From Candidatus Fervidifonticultor quintus (GTDB lineage: Bacteria > Sysuimicrobiota > Sysuimicrobiia > Sysuimicrobiales > Humicultoraceae), in the NCBI GenBank assembly GCA_031459535.1, contig JAVKIJ010000017.1, positions 1 through 43,061 of the forward strand: DNA of 43,061 bases, read 5' to 3'. The notes under the pieces are model-generated. The model worked only from the letters and a program-made list of their open reading frames with translations. It ran no database searches and was not told where the DNA came from. Below are positions 33,898 through 39,280 of the stretch, one piece after another. The position numbers and the translations under genes were made by a program. Every line of letters starts with the position of its first letter. Position 1 is the first letter of the stretch.

Positions 33898-35172
33898 CTA
33901 GCGGCGCGCGACGAGCAGTGGCAGGACGTCCACCCCTCTCAGGTGACCCAGGGCACCCGCAGCCGCGCTGCGCTCGGTGTATCGTCCGGTACCATCGGGG
34001 GTGAGGCCGCCGCTGATGAGCAGCGGCACCGGATCGGCCGAGTGCCCGCGCACCTCGCACGGCGTGGCGTGATCGGCGGTCACCGCCACCAGCACGGCGG
34101 CGGGATCGCACCCGGGCAGCAGGGTCCCAAAGAAGTGCGCGTCAATCTCCTCGATCACCTGACGCTTGGCCTCTGCATCGCCGTCGTGGCCGGGTTCGTC
34201 CGGGCCCTTGATGTGAATGTAGAGACCGTCGTAGGCCGGCAGCACGGCCAGGGCCTGCCTCGCCCACGACCGGTAGGTCTCGGCCCGGCTCGCGGTCGCG
34301 CTGGGCGGGACCTCCACCACGCCCATCCCGAGGAAACGGGCGATCCCGCGCTCCACCGGCATCTCCACGAAACACCCGAGCGCGACGCCGAAACGCTCGC
34401 GCACAGACGGCACCCGGGGCAGGTGGTCACCGCCGTCTCTGAGCAGGATCAGGTTTCCCGGCAGCTTGCCCTCGGCCCGCCGACGGGCGTTAACGGGGTG
34501 CGCGTCGAGGATGGCGCGGGCTTTCCAGGTGAACTCGTTGACCAGCGCCGCAGCCGCCCGGGCCTCGGCCGACTCGTCGAGCGGCACGCAGTCCTCGACC
34601 TCGCCCTTGAAGGTGGCCTTCGCCACGCCCAGTCCGCCCACGCGGGCATAGGCGGGGTCGGTGTTGGAGACCTGGGCGCTCAGGCGCCCCTGCAAAGGAC
34701 GGAACACCACGGCGCAGCGGTGCGCGACGGACGCGGCCACGACCACGGTGGCCGGTGCGCTGTCCAGTCTCACCTCCCGCGTCACAGCCTCTGCCAGCGC
34801 CTGGGCCTCTTCTGAGGTGAGGTTGCGCCCCACGCGACGGTCCACGATGGTGCGTCCCTCCCCACCCGTCGCGAAGTTGCCGCGCATGGCCAGGTCGCCC
34901 GTGCGGAACTCGAGCCCGGCCCCCAGGGCCTCCAGCGGGCCCCGGCCCGCGTGGTAGACCGTGGGATCGTACCCCAGCATCGCGGTCACGGCCACGTCGG
35001 ACTCGGGGGCGATGCCCTCACCGACCGTGGTGACGAGGCCTTGCTGTCCGGCGGCGGCCAGGCGGTCGAGATGCGGCGTGCGCGCGGCCTCCAGGGGCGT
35101 GTGCCCGCCGAGCTGGGCCACGGGCCTGTCAGCAACACCATCGAGGATCACATAGAGGATCTTTCGGCTCAT
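33898..35172 (-). CDS. apgM: Cofactor-independent phosphoglycerate mutase, ApgM (archaeal-type) family
   Basis: DG.AD, TPLE.A.TP..D, APESD (Ser nucleophile), GRGPLEA, DEPGH, TADH.TP, HS.DPVP. Confidence 0.85.
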   Translation of the reverse strand: MSRKILYVILDGVADRPVAQLGGHTPLEAARTPHLDRLAAAGQQGLVTTVGEGIAPESDVAVTAMLGYDPTVYHAGRGPLEALGAGLEFRTGDLAMRGNFATGGEGRTIVDRRVGRNLTSEEAQALAEAVTREVRLDSAPATVVVAASVAHRCAVVFRPLQGRLSAQVSNTDPAYARVGGLGVAKATFKGEVEDCVPLDESAEARAAAALVNEFTWKARAILDAHPVNARRRAEGKLPGNLILLRDGGDHLPRVPSVRERFGVALGCFVEMPVERGIARFLGMGVVEVPPSATASRAETYRSWARQALAVLPAYDGLYIHIKGPDEPGHDGDAEAKRQVIEEIDAHFFGTLLPGCDPAAVLVAVTADHATPCEVRGHSADPVPLLISGGLTPDGTGRYTERSAAAGALGHLRGVDVLPLLVARR

Positions 35173-35188
35173 CGCATCGCTCCTCACA

Positions 35189-36073
35189 TCACCCGGCCAT
35201 GGCCGCCAGCGCCCCGACCAGATCGCTGCTCAACGTGCCCACGTACACCTCGCAGGCCGGGCCAGTCATTCGGATGCTCCAGTCGGTGCCCACGTTCAGG
35301 CGCAGATCACCGCCGGGCGCCGAGATGGTGACCTGCCGGTCTGTGCTCCCCCGGCGCACCGCGGCGGCGGCCACGGCGCTGGCGCTGGTCCCCGACGCCA
35401 GGGTCTCGCCCGCGCCGCGCTCCCAGATCAGGATCCGCACCCGGTCGCGCGCCACCGGCTGCGCGAACTGTACGTTGGCCCGGTTGGGAAAGATCGGGTG
35501 CGTCTCCAGCAGCGGCCCGAGTCGGTGCAGGTCAACCTGGGCCAGATCGGGGACGAAGACCACGCAGTGGGGGTTGCCAACGGACACGGCGGTGATTGCC
35601 AGCCGCTCGCCGCCGACCTCGATGACCTCGTCCACCACGTCGCGCGGCGGCCCGGCCACCGGGATCTCGGTGCTCCGAAACGTCGCCCGACCCACATCCA
35701 CGGTCATCTGTTCCACGCGCCCCCCGGCCAGGTGCAGCTCGATCCCCGCGACGCCTCCCGGCGTCTCGATCGTGAAGAGCGGCCTGGAGACGTAGCCGTG
35801 ATCGTGGAGGAACTTGGCGAAGATGCGCAGGCCGTTGCCGCTCTTCTCGGCCTCGCTGCCGTCAGGATTGTAGATGCGCAGGCCGAAGTCGGCCGCGGCG
35901 CTGGGCGCCAGGGCCAGGATGCCGTCCGAGCCCACCCCCAGATGGCGGTCACAGAGGCGACGGATGGTGGCCGGGGTCAGCGCAAAGTCCAGCGCCGCCG
36001 GATCCACCACGATGTAGTCGTTGCCCAGTGCGTGGGACTTGACGATCCAGTTCCGTCCCGACATCCTCGTCAC
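35189..36073 (-). CDS. dapF: Diaminopimelate epimerase family protein with Ser/Ser active site
   Basis: K.H.LGND, DRH.GVG.DG, YN.DGSEAEKSGNG, GNPH, N, WERG.GETLASGTS; both canonical Cys are Ser. Confidence 0.85.
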   Translation of the reverse strand: MTRMSGRNWIVKSHALGNDYIVVDPAALDFALTPATIRRLCDRHLGVGSDGILALAPSAAADFGLRIYNPDGSEAEKSGNGLRIFAKFLHDHGYVSRPLFTIETPGGVAGIELHLAGGRVEQMTVDVGRATFRSTEIPVAGPPRDVVDEVIEVGGERLAITAVSVGNPHCVVFVPDLAQVDLHRLGPLLETHPIFPNRANVQFAQPVARDRVRILIWERGAGETLASGTSASAVAAAAVRRGSTDRQVTISAPGGDLRLNVGTDWSIRMTGPACEVYVGTLSSDLVGALAAMAG

Positions 36074-37044
36074 GGCGTGCGAACCTCCTGGCGGTGACGG
36101 GCGGACCGGCGCAGTGCGGCGGCGATCAACCGGTCCACCAGCACCGGAAACTCGATCCCCGCGGCGCGCGCGGCCTTGGGAAACAGGCTGCCCTCGGTCA
36201 GTCCCGGAATCGTATTCACCTCGAGCACCACCACATCGGCCTCGCGCACGAACAGGTCCACGCGGGCGAAATCGGCGCAGCCGAGCACGCGGTAGGCACG
36301 CACCGCCGCGGCCTGCGCGCGCCAGACCGCCCCGGCCGGCACGCGGGCCGGACAGATCTCCTCGGCGGCGCCCGGTGTGTACTTGGCTTCATAGTTGAAG
36401 AACTCCCGCTTCGGCACGATCTCGACCAGCGGCAGCGGCAACGGGCTGCCGCCCTCGTCGTCGTCGAGAACGGCGCAGGTGAGCTCCGTGCCGCGCAGGT
36501 ACTCCTCGATCAACACCGCCCGGTCCAGCGCGAAGGCCGCCTCGAGCGCTGGCTCCAGTTCTCCGGCCTCGTGCACGATGCTGACGCCGATGCTACTGCC
36601 CTGGGCGTTGGGCTTGACGACGCAGGGGAATCCCAGCGCCTGCTGGATCTCGGCGGCCAAGGACCGGCTCCGCTCGGGGTACGCCTCGCGTTCGACCGCA
36701 AGATAGCCAGGTGTCGGCACGCCGTTGAACCCGAGGAGCTGTCGCGAGCGACGCTTGTCCATGGCGAGCGCGCTGGCCAGCACCCCGGAGCCCGTGTACG
36801 GGACGCCGGCAAACTCCAGCAGGCCCTGCAGGCAGCCGTCCTCGCCGTACGGGCCGTGCATGGCGATGAACGCCACGTCGAGGTCCGGCGGCGGGAACCA
36901 CGCCCCATCGCGCGGCACGACCAGCGGGACGGCGTCGTAGCGCGCGGGGTCCAGCGCCGCCAGGACGCGGCGGCCCGAGGCCAGCGAGATGTCGTGCTCG
37001 GGCGAAGGCCCGCCCATCAATACACCCACGCGGATCCGGCTCAC
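36070..37044 (-). CDS. ddl: D-alanine--D-alanine ligase
   Basis: GG.S.EH..S, HG..GEDG, MDK, KP...GSS.G, NYEAKY, RVD, EVNTIPG; AGGAGG RBS before GTG 37044. Confidence 0.92.
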   Translation of the reverse strand: MSRIRVGVLMGGPSPEHDISLASGRRVLAALDPARYDAVPLVVPRDGAWFPPPDLDVAFIAMHGPYGEDGCLQGLLEFAGVPYTGSGVLASALAMDKRRSRQLLGFNGVPTPGYLAVEREAYPERSRSLAAEIQQALGFPCVVKPNAQGSSIGVSIVHEAGELEPALEAAFALDRAVLIEEYLRGTELTCAVLDDDEGGSPLPLPLVEIVPKREFFNYEAKYTPGAAEEICPARVPAGAVWRAQAAAVRAYRVLGCADFARVDLFVREADVVVLEVNTIPGLTEGSLFPKAARAAGIEFPVLVDRLIAAALRRSARHRQEVRTP

Positions 37045-37078
37045 GGGGCACCTCCTGGGAGTCCGGCCTGATTGCGGT

Positions 37079-38026
37079 TCACGAAGACATCTCCGGCATC
37101 CGGCGTCGGGCCCGCCAGGCCGCGATGCGCTCGTGCAGCAGCGCCACCGCGCCCTCGCTGAGGACGCTGGCAAACGGAATGGCGCGCGCGCCGGGCGGGA
37201 GGCGGTCGCGGATGCGATCCAGCACCCGCGGCGCGGCCAGCACCACTTCGCTCCGGGCGAGTGTGGCGGCTAAGCCGACAGGGTCGTCGAGCGTCGCCGT
37301 CTGCAGCCGCGGTGTGCGCAGGCCGACCGACGCCAGCGACCGGGCCTTGCTGAGCACGCCCTCACGCGTGGCGCAGACCAGGGCGACGCTCTGTGTGCGC
37401 GGCAGCCGCGCGACCTGTTCCAGCGTGGCGAAGTCCGGCAATGCCATGAGCCCGACCACCTCGAGCCCACCTGACCGGGCCCGCGCCTCTTCCACGTGGA
37501 AAAACGTGGTCGCCACCAGGTCGACATCGGCCAAGTGAGCGGGGAGGTCCTGGAGCGGTATCGGGACCACCGGCACCTCCACGGCGTCGCGCACCAGGCG
37601 GGAGAAGTAGGCCAGGTCCACCGCGTTGCACTCAGCGAATCCCAGGCGTGGTCGATGGAGGCTGCGGCGCCGACCCGCACGAACCGTGATCGTCGCGATC
37701 AGGTCGTCGAGGGAGAGCCTGCTGGCGGCGGCCGAAGCCAGGAGCCGGTCGATCTGCGCCACCAGGACCTGCGGTGGCCGCGCGGGCGGCGCCCAGACGA
37801 CAAACGTGCCGCGCCCGGGCGTCGCCTCCAACACGCCCTCGCCCTCGAGTTCGGCGTAGGCGCGCGCCACCGTGTTGCGGTTGACGCGCAGGAAACCGGC
37901 CAGGGTGCGCACCGGCGGCAGCCGCGTGCCGACCGGCAGGTGCCCGGCGGCGATCTGGTGGCGGACCTGCGCTTTGAGCTGGTCGGTCAGGGAGACGGAG
38001 GTGTGACGGTCGAGGACCACGCGCAT
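37079..38026 (-). CDS. GntR (YtrA-like) transcriptional regulator with extended C-terminal domains
   Basis: G.RLPPVR.LA..L.VNRNTV.RAY..L...G....GRGTFV winged HTH. Confidence 0.9.
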   Translation of the reverse strand: MRVVLDRHTSVSLTDQLKAQVRHQIAAGHLPVGTRLPPVRTLAGFLRVNRNTVARAYAELEGEGVLEATPGRGTFVVWAPPARPPQVLVAQIDRLLASAAASRLSLDDLIATITVRAGRRRSLHRPRLGFAECNAVDLAYFSRLVRDAVEVPVVPIPLQDLPAHLADVDLVATTFFHVEEARARSGGLEVVGLMALPDFATLEQVARLPRTQSVALVCATREGVLSKARSLASVGLRTPRLQTATLDDPVGLAATLARSEVVLAAPRVLDRIRDRLPPGARAIPFASVLSEGAVALLHERIAAWRARRRMPEMSS

Positions 38027-38173: not shown

Positions 38174-39280
38174 ATGCGGGTGACGCGGATCGAAGTCTAC
38201 GGGTACGACCTGCACTACATCGGGGTCGAGTATGTCATGTCCGGCGGCCGGGCGGTGCGGGCGCTGCCGTCCACCGTGGTACGCATCATGACCGACCAGG
38301 GCATCGACGGCTGGGGCGAGACGTGTCCCCTGGGGCAGACCTATCTGCCAGCTTTTGCCGAGGGCGCTCGCGCTGCGCTGCGCGAGTTGGCCCCCGCCCT
38401 CATTGGAACCGATCCGCGCAACCTGGCCATGGTCTGGGAGCGCCTCGACCGCACGCTGCGCGGCCACCTGTACGCCAAGAGTCCCCTCGACGTCGCGTGC
38501 TGGGATCTGCTCGGCAGGGCCACCGGACAGCCGCTGGCGACCCTGCTCGGCGGCCGACGCCAGGAGCGCTACCCACTCTACGTGGCAATCCCCCTGGGAT
38601 CCGCCGACGAGATGGCGGCGCACGTCCTGGCCCAGCGCGCGGCGGGAATCCACCGGTTCCAGCTCAAGATCGGCGCGGATCCCCGGGAGGACGCGGCGCG
38701 CGTGCGGCACGTCGTGGAGGTCACCGACGCGGACGACGTGGTCATCGCCGATGCCAACGGCGGCTGGCGCGTCCAGGACGCCATCACCGCCGCCCGTCTG
38801 CTCGAACCGCTGGAGCGCGTCTACCTGGAGCAACCGTGTCCGACCCTCGAGGAGTGCGCTGCGGTCCGCCGGACCACCACTTTGCCCATGATCTGCGACG
38901 AGATCGTCACCGACACGCCGTCGTTGCTGGCGGCGGTGCAACAGGCCGGCGCCAGCGGCGTCAACCTCAAGATCAGCCGCGTCGGAGGCCTGTCGGCAGC
39001 CCGGATCATCCGCGATGTCTGCGAAGCCCTGGGCACGTCGCTCACGATCGAGGACACCTGGGGCGGCGACCTGACCACGGCCGCCGTCAGCCATCTGGCT
39101 GCCACCGTGCGGCCGGAGTTGCTCTTCACGGTCTCGTTTATGAACGACTGGACCCGGGAACACATCGCTGGCTACCAGCCCCGCTCGCGCGACGGGTGGG
39201 GTGCGCCGCCGTCGGGATCGGGTCTGGGCGTGGAGGTCGACGTTGAGGCGCTCGGCCGCCCGCTCTTCATCGCAGAGTGA
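38174..39280 (+). CDS. Enolase-superfamily (MR/MLE) enzyme, cis-3-hydroxy-L-proline dehydratase-like
   Basis: GWGE.CP, FQLKIG (QxK), DAN, EQP, DE, NLK.S and IEDTWGG motifs. Confidence 0.8.
   Translation: MRVTRIEVYGYDLHYIGVEYVMSGGRAVRALPSTVVRIMTDQGIDGWGETCPLGQTYLPAFAEGARAALRELAPALIGTDPRNLAMVWERLDRTLRGHLYAKSPLDVACWDLLGRATGQPLATLLGGRRQERYPLYVAIPLGSADEMAAHVLAQRAAGIHRFQLKIGADPREDAARVRHVVEVTDADDVVIADANGGWRVQDAITAARLLEPLERVYLEQPCPTLEECAAVRRTTTLPMICDEIVTDTPSLLAAVQQAGASGVNLKISRVGGLSAARIIRDVCEALGTSLTIEDTWGGDLTTAAVSHLAATVRPELLFTVSFMNDWTREHIAGYQPRSRDGWGAPPSGSGLGVEVDVEALGRPLFIAE

Follow-up and report, generated by a model that had tools for sequence, protein, structure and literature searches.

A DapF-family protein with serine at both catalytic cysteine positions, predicted to be the diaminopimelate epimerase of an uncultured bacterial lineage

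Amino-acid racemases that work independently of pyridoxal 5'-phosphate (PLP) are textbook thiol/thiolate enzymes. Here we describe dapF, a gene on the reverse strand of contig JAVKIJ010000017.1 of Candidatus Fervidifonticultor quintus (assembly GCA_031459535.1; positions 1 to 43,061, the whole of which is referred to as the window), which encodes a member of the diaminopimelate (DAP) epimerase family with serine at both of the positions occupied by catalytic cysteines in classical DapF enzymes. We consider it likely that this protein is a housekeeping LL-/meso-DAP epimerase (EC 5.1.1.7) belonging to a Ser/Ser branch of the family, and, judged from sequence comparison, the oddity of the two serines is both real and ancient. 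Ser/Ser DapFs as a kind were already described in 2025 and the dapF protein is a further member; the caveat in the original prediction, which had been made from the DNA letters alone, that variants of this sort might be on record already was therefore right (Lamer et al. 2025, J Mol Biol 437:169375, as cited in PMC13728532).

An intact DapF with two serines at the catalytic sites

The dapF reading frame (Table 1) is intact, and the database form of its product, P0001, is 291 aa long with an ATG start at 36064. Using HMMER, Ser78 and Ser227 of the 294-aa form were aligned opposite the cysteines of EMCGNG and ACGTG in the solved DapFs 9mro, 8qzy and 5ha4, which together with the open reading frame bears out the original prediction of serine at both catalytic positions, and the codon coordinates that it gave (35840-35842 and 35393-35395) are exact on the sequence ruler. 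The Cys/Cys pair, which is the state of every natural DapF structure in the PDB copy searched and the mark of a classical DapF, is absent from the dapF protein. In addition, the first serine is preceded by Lys, where Met is usual, and ASGTS replaces ACGTG at the second site.

Profile searches gave 189.9 bits to PF01678 in two stretches, corresponding to two DAP_epimerase domains, and 241.5 bits to the DapF equivalog model TIGR00652 (cut-off 114.65; residues 11-281, model positions 4-268 of 270), with only 88.8 bits to the bifunctional DapF/glutamate racemase model NF038284 (cut-off 350). The best solved relative was 9mro (E 7.6e-63), the Cys/Cys DapF of Anabaena sp. YBS01 (PMC12039745). An AlphaFold model derived from 53 Ser/Ser sequences (pLDDT 97.4, pTM 0.93) was matched by Foldseek to 9mro_A with a TM score of 0.88 and an rmsd of 2.1 Å at 41% identity, and ranks 1-26 were all DAP epimerases except 7vdy at rank 18. 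The catalytic cysteines of 9MRO are located at the N-termini of helices 2 and 4 (PMC12039745); likewise, positions 75 and 224 of the 291-aa form lie directly before helices 76-88 and 225-237 in our model, placing both serines at helix N-termini. Sequence, profile and Foldseek searches of the PDB copies returned no natural Ser/Ser DapF structure, only the engineered C73S and C217S forms, and a search of a protein atlas returned only clusters with the generic name 'diaminopimelate epimerase', without a structure for the dapF protein.

We next compared the substrate pocket with that of 9MRO, in which DAP is contacted by N13, N66, G76, N77, N164, N197, E215, R216, G225 and T226 (PMC12039745). All ten residues have identical aligned counterparts in the dapF protein, and the substrate motifs GND, NxDGS, GNPH, N and ERG, earlier described as intact, are all present and match these contacts. 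In the 291-aa numbering, N15, N66, G76, N77, N164, N197, E215, R216 and G225 are 93-99% conserved in the Ser/Ser representatives described below, with position 226 being T in the dapF protein and S or T across the family. This pocket bears on the alternative that the protein is an active PLP-independent racemase or epimerase acting mainly on a substrate other than DAP, such as lanthionine or some other diamino or D-amino acid used in the cell wall, with its adjacency to the D-alanine--D-alanine ligase gene ddl reflecting that role. Members of PF01678 with changed substrates do exist, including the O-ureidoserine racemase 7vdy, which is among our matches, and the histidine racemase HisR (PMC11602996), and plant and cyanobacterial DapFs tolerate lanthionine (PMC12039745). 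However, the residues for the distal and proximal ends of DAP are all kept, TIGR00652 was passed at ~2-fold its cut-off, and the score to 7vdy was 145.7 bits compared with 215.9 bits to DapFs.

The Ser/Ser branch and its distribution

Both serine motifs, EKSGNG and ASG[ST]S, were present in 120/120 of the best homologs (66-100% identity), none of these closest proteins being Cys/Cys, and in all 30 loci fetched from related genomes, including L034 and L086 (both ASG[ST]S). At the first site, the serine codons AGC, AGT, TCC, TCG and TCA are all in use in another phylum, and this therefore points to selection for serine as an amino acid. Taken with the intact frame, these observations refute the view that the serines stem from an error in sequencing or assembly or from pseudogene decay, as the original prediction had already argued.

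A full HMMER search of 1.84 billion cluster representatives returned 21,236 matches at E <= 0.001. The best 150 of these, which stand for clusters at 50% identity, comprised 75 Ser/Ser, 63 Cys/Cys and 12 mixed or partial sequences, with a first-site serine always paired with a second-site serine in those 75. The two types also differ at neighbouring columns: Lys versus Met before the first site, Ser versus Gly after G-[ST] at the second, Gln versus Glu at column 199, and, six residues past the first site, Ile in 96% of the Ser/Ser rows versus Cys in 87% of the Cys/Cys rows. A quick IQ-TREE analysis was then run on 132 near-full-length rows out of 151 (the 150 representatives and the query), 19 having been excluded because of their length or because of gaps at the catalytic sites. 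A branch with SH-aLRT support of 99 divides this tree into 70 rows, of which 66 are Ser/Ser (query included) and four are variants, and 62 rows, made up of 57 Cys/Cys, two Ser/Ser with a different motif and three variants; 66/68 Ser/Ser rows are thus on one side. Judged from this tree, which has no known root and whose alignment included both catalytic (trait) columns, most Ser/Ser DapFs form one clade, and the Ser/Ser form is an old and largely single branch of the DapF family.

Several representatives carry odd catalytic pairs, namely Ser/Cys (P0127 and P0203), Cys/Ser (P0202), Thr/Cys (P0218), Arg/Ser (P0122), Tyr/Ser (P0243) and Asp/Ser (P0255). Such mixed or odd pairs fall partly within the Ser/Ser side and partly within the Cys/Cys side of the tree, and may represent errors, inactive copies or transitional forms linking the two types.

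A scan of species genomes with the pattern DGSEAExSGN found at least 595 relatives, and we kept 80 loci, whose serine state is preset by the motif. Their labels were Methylomirabilota/Rokubacteria, Dadabacteria, Nitrospira, Prolixibacteraceae, Tangfeifania diversioriginum DSM 27063, Sulfurihydrogenibium, Clostridium sp. LS, Latescibacterota, Gemmatimonadota, Verrucomicrobia, Pirellulales and Anaerolineae, and the Ser/Ser form was also seen in records labelled Thermodesulfobacteriota. In 4/5 whole genomes from other phyla the Ser/Ser gene was the sole TIGR00652 match; the genome of Clostridium sp. LS contains a Cys/Cys copy in addition to the Ser/Ser one. A further 81 genomes, taken as a sample of the phylum to which genome G095 belongs (records labelled Nitrospirales), gave a DapF-family match in 80 and the exact serine motif in 27, the latter being a lower bound as the motif is strict. 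All motif matches were inside a DapF-family match except one at a contig edge. Among the 27 genomes, 21 had no other DapF-family match, four had an additional copy without the motif, one had two motif copies and one had the edge fragment; with 21/27 being sole copies, the Ser/Ser type thus mostly stands in for the Cys/Cys type and vice versa. Among the sequences that we examined, none was identified as a cyanobacterial Ser/Ser DapF. P0141, the best Cys/Cys representative, was rejected as a cyanobacterial anchor, as it matched 9mro and 2otn of B. anthracis equally (302.6 bits each).

The spread of the Ser/Ser form is relevant to the idea that the serine pair was selected because it is not oxidisable and forms no disulfide, giving an oxidation-proof DapF. 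This is compatible with a DAP epimerase function, and we hold it tentatively, as a possibility on which the evidence is divided. The same speculation has been raised for Anabaena, in which the two forms coexist: a Ser/Ser enzyme may be of help under oxidative stress, its physiological relevance awaiting validation, and redox-sensitive, half-oxidised Cys/Cys DapFs are known, as in 5H2G (PMC13728532). Furthermore, the third family-typical cysteine, six residues past the catalytic one, is also lost in the Ser/Ser rows, where Ile takes its place, and the Ser/Ser form occurs in the records labelled Nitrospira and Methylomirabilota. On the other hand, it also occurs in those labelled Prolixibacteraceae, Thermodesulfobacteriota, Clostridium and Anaerolineae. 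These lineages are largely anaerobic, and a simple account confined to aerobes is at odds with this. In addition, Cys38 is invariant in the Ser/Ser alignment, which argues that cysteine as such is not avoided.

Pathway context and gene neighbourhood

We then examined whether the genome that contains the window (G000; 3.1 Mb in 138 contigs, 88.85% complete, 5.24% contamination) has another route to meso-DAP. Here dapF is the only PF01678 locus, and the check for a Cys-type dapF suggested in the original prediction found none in this genome. Genes for lysA (450.2 bits; cut-off 297.9), dapA (354.6 bits; cut-off 206.15) and dapB (252 bits; cut-off 122) are present, as is a murE that passed the DAP-ligase model NF001126 (553.5 versus 373) and failed the Lys-ligase model (297.5 versus 536). 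Within G000 there was no match to succinyl-type dapD, and acetyl-type dapD (best 46.8 bits; cut-off 231.75), meso-DAP dehydrogenase (Ddh; best 22 bits; cut-off 180.6) and plant-type DapL were not found. The DapL model TIGR03540 matched a fragment at a contig end (293.9 bits, positions 2-206 of 383). With no dapD or Ddh and with this DapL-like fragment, the pathway probably leads straight to LL-DAP, which would then have to be epimerised. The presence of a sole DapF-family gene together with lysA and a DAP-type murE, both of which need meso-DAP, supports dapF as a working epimerase.

Likewise, in a set of 94 related genomes, grouped as one phylum and all of one order, a dapF match was found in 88 (58-100% identity), being a single match in 87/88, and all 54/54 high-quality genomes had one. 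In the 61 related genomes that are >=90% complete (with G000 counted in the set), a DapL-like gene was found in 58 and Ddh in none. The DapL-like genes of these 58 scored 541-588 bits to TIGR03540, all below the curated cut-off of 593.25, and rule-based annotation would therefore leave this step unnamed. When the unpublished genomes G016 and G024 were excluded, the respective counts were 86/92 for dapF matches, 52/52 for high-quality genomes, 56/59 for the DapL-like gene and 0/59 for Ddh.

The sole second DapF-family match in the lineage (G020:C218:4874-5683) is 33% identical, is interrupted by a TAG codon and comes from a genome with 7% contamination; this copy is probably foreign or a pseudogene. 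All nine genomes of family f5 carry a second, weaker DapL-like copy (352-399 bits). An alanine racemase gene (alr) was not found in the G000 assembly, where the sole proteins of the Ala_racemase_N fold are YggS and a 3-hydroxy-D-aspartate aldolase-like protein. An alr-family gene is present in 53/61 of the related genomes, and alr was also not found in all three genomes of genus g2 (94-97% complete, one in four contigs) nor in the single g4 genome, these alr-less relatives being G001-G003 and G013.

Neighbouring genes and fusions in other phyla also connect the Ser/Ser gene with the DAP pathway. A lysA gene lies near it in 12/80 of the diverse loci (TIGR01048 304.5 bits; cut-off 297.9) and a plant-type dapL in 13/80 (TIGR03542 610.8 bits; cut-off 364.7), as judged by neighbourhood clustering with crude longest-ORF calling, which recovered dapF itself in 65/80 loci and lost it in 15. 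The other recurrent neighbours in these loci (TsaC, UvrC, a glycosyltransferase and a polysaccharide deacetylase) are only lineage-local, so there is no pan-phylum operon. Ser/Ser DapF is fused to an Orn/DAP decarboxylase (LysA-like) in P0139 and P0146, and partially in P0134, to Mur ligase M and C domains in P0148 and to a complete alanine racemase in P0232, although these fusions could include metagenome gene-calling artefacts in which adjacent calls were merged. A fusion to a GGACT domain was also seen among the Ser/Ser DapF proteins (set P0139, P0146, P0134, P0148, P0232 and P0138). The pathway gap, the dapL and lysA neighbours and the fusions give indirect support, at the level of sequence, to interconversion of LL-DAP and meso-DAP by these proteins.

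Table 1. Coordinates of dapF, its two catalytic-site serines and neighbouring genes in the window
Feature	Position	Strand	Description
dapF, Ser/Ser type	35189..36073	-	Diaminopimelate epimerase family ORF, 294 aa, GTG start
Ser78 (294-aa form) = Ser75 (291-aa form)	AGC 35840-35842	-	In EAEKSGNG, first catalytic Cys position
Ser227 (294-aa form) = Ser224 (291-aa form)	TCG 35393-35395	-	In ETLASGTS, second catalytic Cys position
apgM-family gene	33898..35187	-	Directly downstream of dapF; TIGR00306 405.5 bits (cut-off 320)
ddl, D-alanine--D-alanine ligase	36070..37173	-	Directly upstream of dapF; NF002378 333.1 bits (cut-off 243)
GntR-type regulator	37079..38026	-	Upstream of ddl; below-cut-off GntR/MocR-type HTH matches alone
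Enolase-superfamily gene	38201-39280	+	Divergent from GntR gene; NF043002 379.3 bits (cut-off 500)

In the window itself, the TGA stop of ddl overlaps the GTG start of dapF (GTGA), and the true ddl start probably lies downstream of the listed one, since the family match does not begin until residue 47. The open reading frame of the apgM-family gene, a member of the cofactor-independent phosphoglycerate mutase family, begins one base past the dapF stop. This gene scored 247.1 bits to TIGR02535, below the cut-off of 446.3, and the TIGR02535 family is the homoserine phosphotransferase HomK (PMC13759103); it may encode either a glycolytic mutase or a diverged HomK, which would belong to the aspartate-family pathway, as does DAP. 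The GntR-type gene is possibly part of the ddl-dapF unit. The divergent enolase-superfamily gene is most like cis-3-hydroxy-L-proline dehydratase (NF043002). We compared this arrangement with 29 related loci that carry ~1.5 kb of flank, one of them from the unpublished G024. A ddl homolog lies beside dapF in 29/29, an apgM-like homolog is present in 25/29, with three of the four misses being loci under 2.6 kb, and a GntR homolog is present in 18/29. The enolase-superfamily gene was present in 0/29 within these flanks and was rejected as a partner of dapF.

The constant company of ddl and the failure to find alr in the G000 assembly could be read in favour of a substrate other than DAP. However, our searches found nothing else that could supply lysA and murE with meso-DAP, and the fusion of a Ser/Ser DapF with an alanine racemase argues for two separate functions, so that we regard a non-DAP main substrate as improbable. 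A role for dapF as a general stand-in for alanine racemase was likewise rejected, with alr present in 53/61 relatives. The original prediction had offered both an oxidation-resistant Ser/Ser epimerase and an enzyme with a different substrate. A Ser/Ser epimerase is favoured by the family assignment, the intact DAP pocket, the pathway gap, the gene context, the fusions and the published report, while a different substrate is disfavoured, as all DAP-contacting residues are kept and no other route to meso-DAP was found in the genome.

Weight of the evidence, proposed chemistry and known systems

A number of points weigh against assigning DAP epimerase activity to dapF. Our literature search showed no assay of the dapF protein or a close relative, and membership of the Anabaena Ser/Ser enzyme in the same clade as dapF is inferred only. 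The part of G000 absent from the assembly could hold another dapF or a ddh, against which only the relatives argue, and the DapL-like genes of those relatives are all under the cut-off, with the G000 copy being a fragment. The alr-family gene of the 53/61 relatives may encode either an alanine racemase or the PLP-type epimerase DapF2 (PMC13759103). Every lysA and dapL neighbour belongs to a single phylum, Bacteroidota, and these cases are therefore not independent, and the Ser/Ser state of the 80 diverse loci does not count as evidence since these were picked by a serine-containing pattern. Engineered Cys-to-Ser mutants of DapF (PMC12039745) and of HisR (PMC11602996) are hindered in catalysis, and serine therefore needs a differently tuned site.

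The poor catalysis of these mutants could also suggest that dapF is a catalytically dead DapF relic with a binding or regulatory role, meso-DAP being supplied by an unrecognised enzyme, and E. coli DapF does have a moonlighting partner, RppH, to which it binds (PMC13728532; PDB 6d13). Against such a relic, the substrate pocket is preserved in full throughout a deep clade, whole lineages with lysA and a DAP-type murE have no other member of the family, Ser/Ser DapFs are found fused to the next enzyme of the pathway, and Ser/Ser DapFs are reported to use their serines catalytically (PMC13728532). We therefore judge a dead relic to be highly improbable, and retain a housekeeping DAP epimerase as the best explanation for dapF.

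For such an epimerase, we propose that a serine hydroxyl/alkoxide pair would replace the thiol/thiolate pair in the two-base 1,1-proton transfer. The branch-specific neighbours, namely Lys before the first serine, Ser after the second-site G-[ST] and Ile six residues on, may tune this chemistry, and dapF is probably co-transcribed with ddl, which would tie it to the supply of peptidoglycan precursors. A bolder proposal, which we think rather unlikely to hold in full, is that the Ser/Ser branch serves as the sole essential DAP epimerase of whole phyla, as opposed to a stress back-up, and that it activates its serines in a chemically distinct way through the branch-specific residues, with the Lys before the first serine as a candidate. 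Lineages with a sole copy are the Armatimonadota-labelled lineage of dapF, part of the G095 phylum and Bacteroidota of the Prolixibacteraceae type. If the distinct activation were true, these enzymes would escape DapF inhibitors that alkylate thiols, such as those of the aziDAP type, and would offer a natural model for an alkoxide/hydroxyl pair that removes an alpha-proton. Both the sole-copy distribution and a distinct mechanism may already be in Lamer et al. 2025.

A natural Ser/Ser pair is mechanistically striking, a point already in print in 2025, and what is added here is evidence for the Ser/Ser branch as the sole epimerase of whole lineages. The form accounts for half of the 150 nearest clusters at 50% identity, is the sole DapF in all high-quality genomes of this lineage and is linked to dapL, lysA, murE-type ligases and ddl. 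The automatic label 'diaminopimelate epimerase' is thus probably right despite the absent active-site cysteines, and annotation rules that demand cysteines would falsely open a gap in the lysine pathway. Inhibitors that alkylate the DapF cysteines are not expected to hit organisms with the Ser/Ser form.

Compared with canonical Cys/Cys DapFs (9MRO; H. influenzae 1gqz and 2gke), the dapF protein shares the fold, the DAP contacts and the location of the catalytic sites at helix N-termini, but differs in having Ser for Cys75 and Cys224, Lys for Met74, Ser for Gly227, Ile for Cys81 and Gln for Glu at column 199. In the Cys/Cys enzyme 9MRO, no basic residue lies within 4 Å of the catalytic sulfurs (PMC12039745), whereas the Ser/Ser branch has a conserved Lys adjoining the first serine. 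The kcat/KM values usual for DapF are ~1e4-1e6 per M per s (PMC12039745). The C73S and C217S forms of H. influenzae DapF (PDB 2q9h and 2q9j) likewise have serine at a catalytic position within the same fold. However, each of these is one engineered change in a site tuned for thiols and was used because it hinders catalysis (PMC12039745), whereas dapF has a natural double replacement with co-varying neighbours that is kept across a deep clade.

Two further systems resemble dapF in part. DapF2, an alanine-racemase-like PLP enzyme that complements an E. coli dapF deletion (a strain that grows normally but secretes DAP), is also a non-canonical route from LL-DAP to meso-DAP in genomes without a Cys/Cys DapF (PMC13759103), but it has an unrelated fold and uses PLP chemistry. 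DcsC (the O-ureidoserine racemase 7vdy, of PF01678) and the DapF relative HisR (PMC11602996) share the two-base layout but have other substrates, changed pockets and Cys/Cys pairs, and the score of the dapF protein to 7vdy is much lower.

The closest parallel is with the enzymes of Lamer et al. 2025, and in our literature search (supplements aside) no text besides PMC13728532 dealt with natural Ser/Ser DapFs. As cited there, these DapFs have two catalytic serines and the same fold and are active, and replacing Ser with Cys inactivated the Ser/Ser DapF of Anabaena sp. YBS01. The dapF protein shares with them the DapF fold and a serine at each of the catalytic positions; the enzymes of Lamer et al. 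are reported to epimerise DAP with their serines. The genome of Anabaena sp. YBS01 encodes both a Cys/Cys and a Ser/Ser DapF (PMC13728532), whereas dapF is the sole DapF in an uncultured lineage labelled Armatimonadota.

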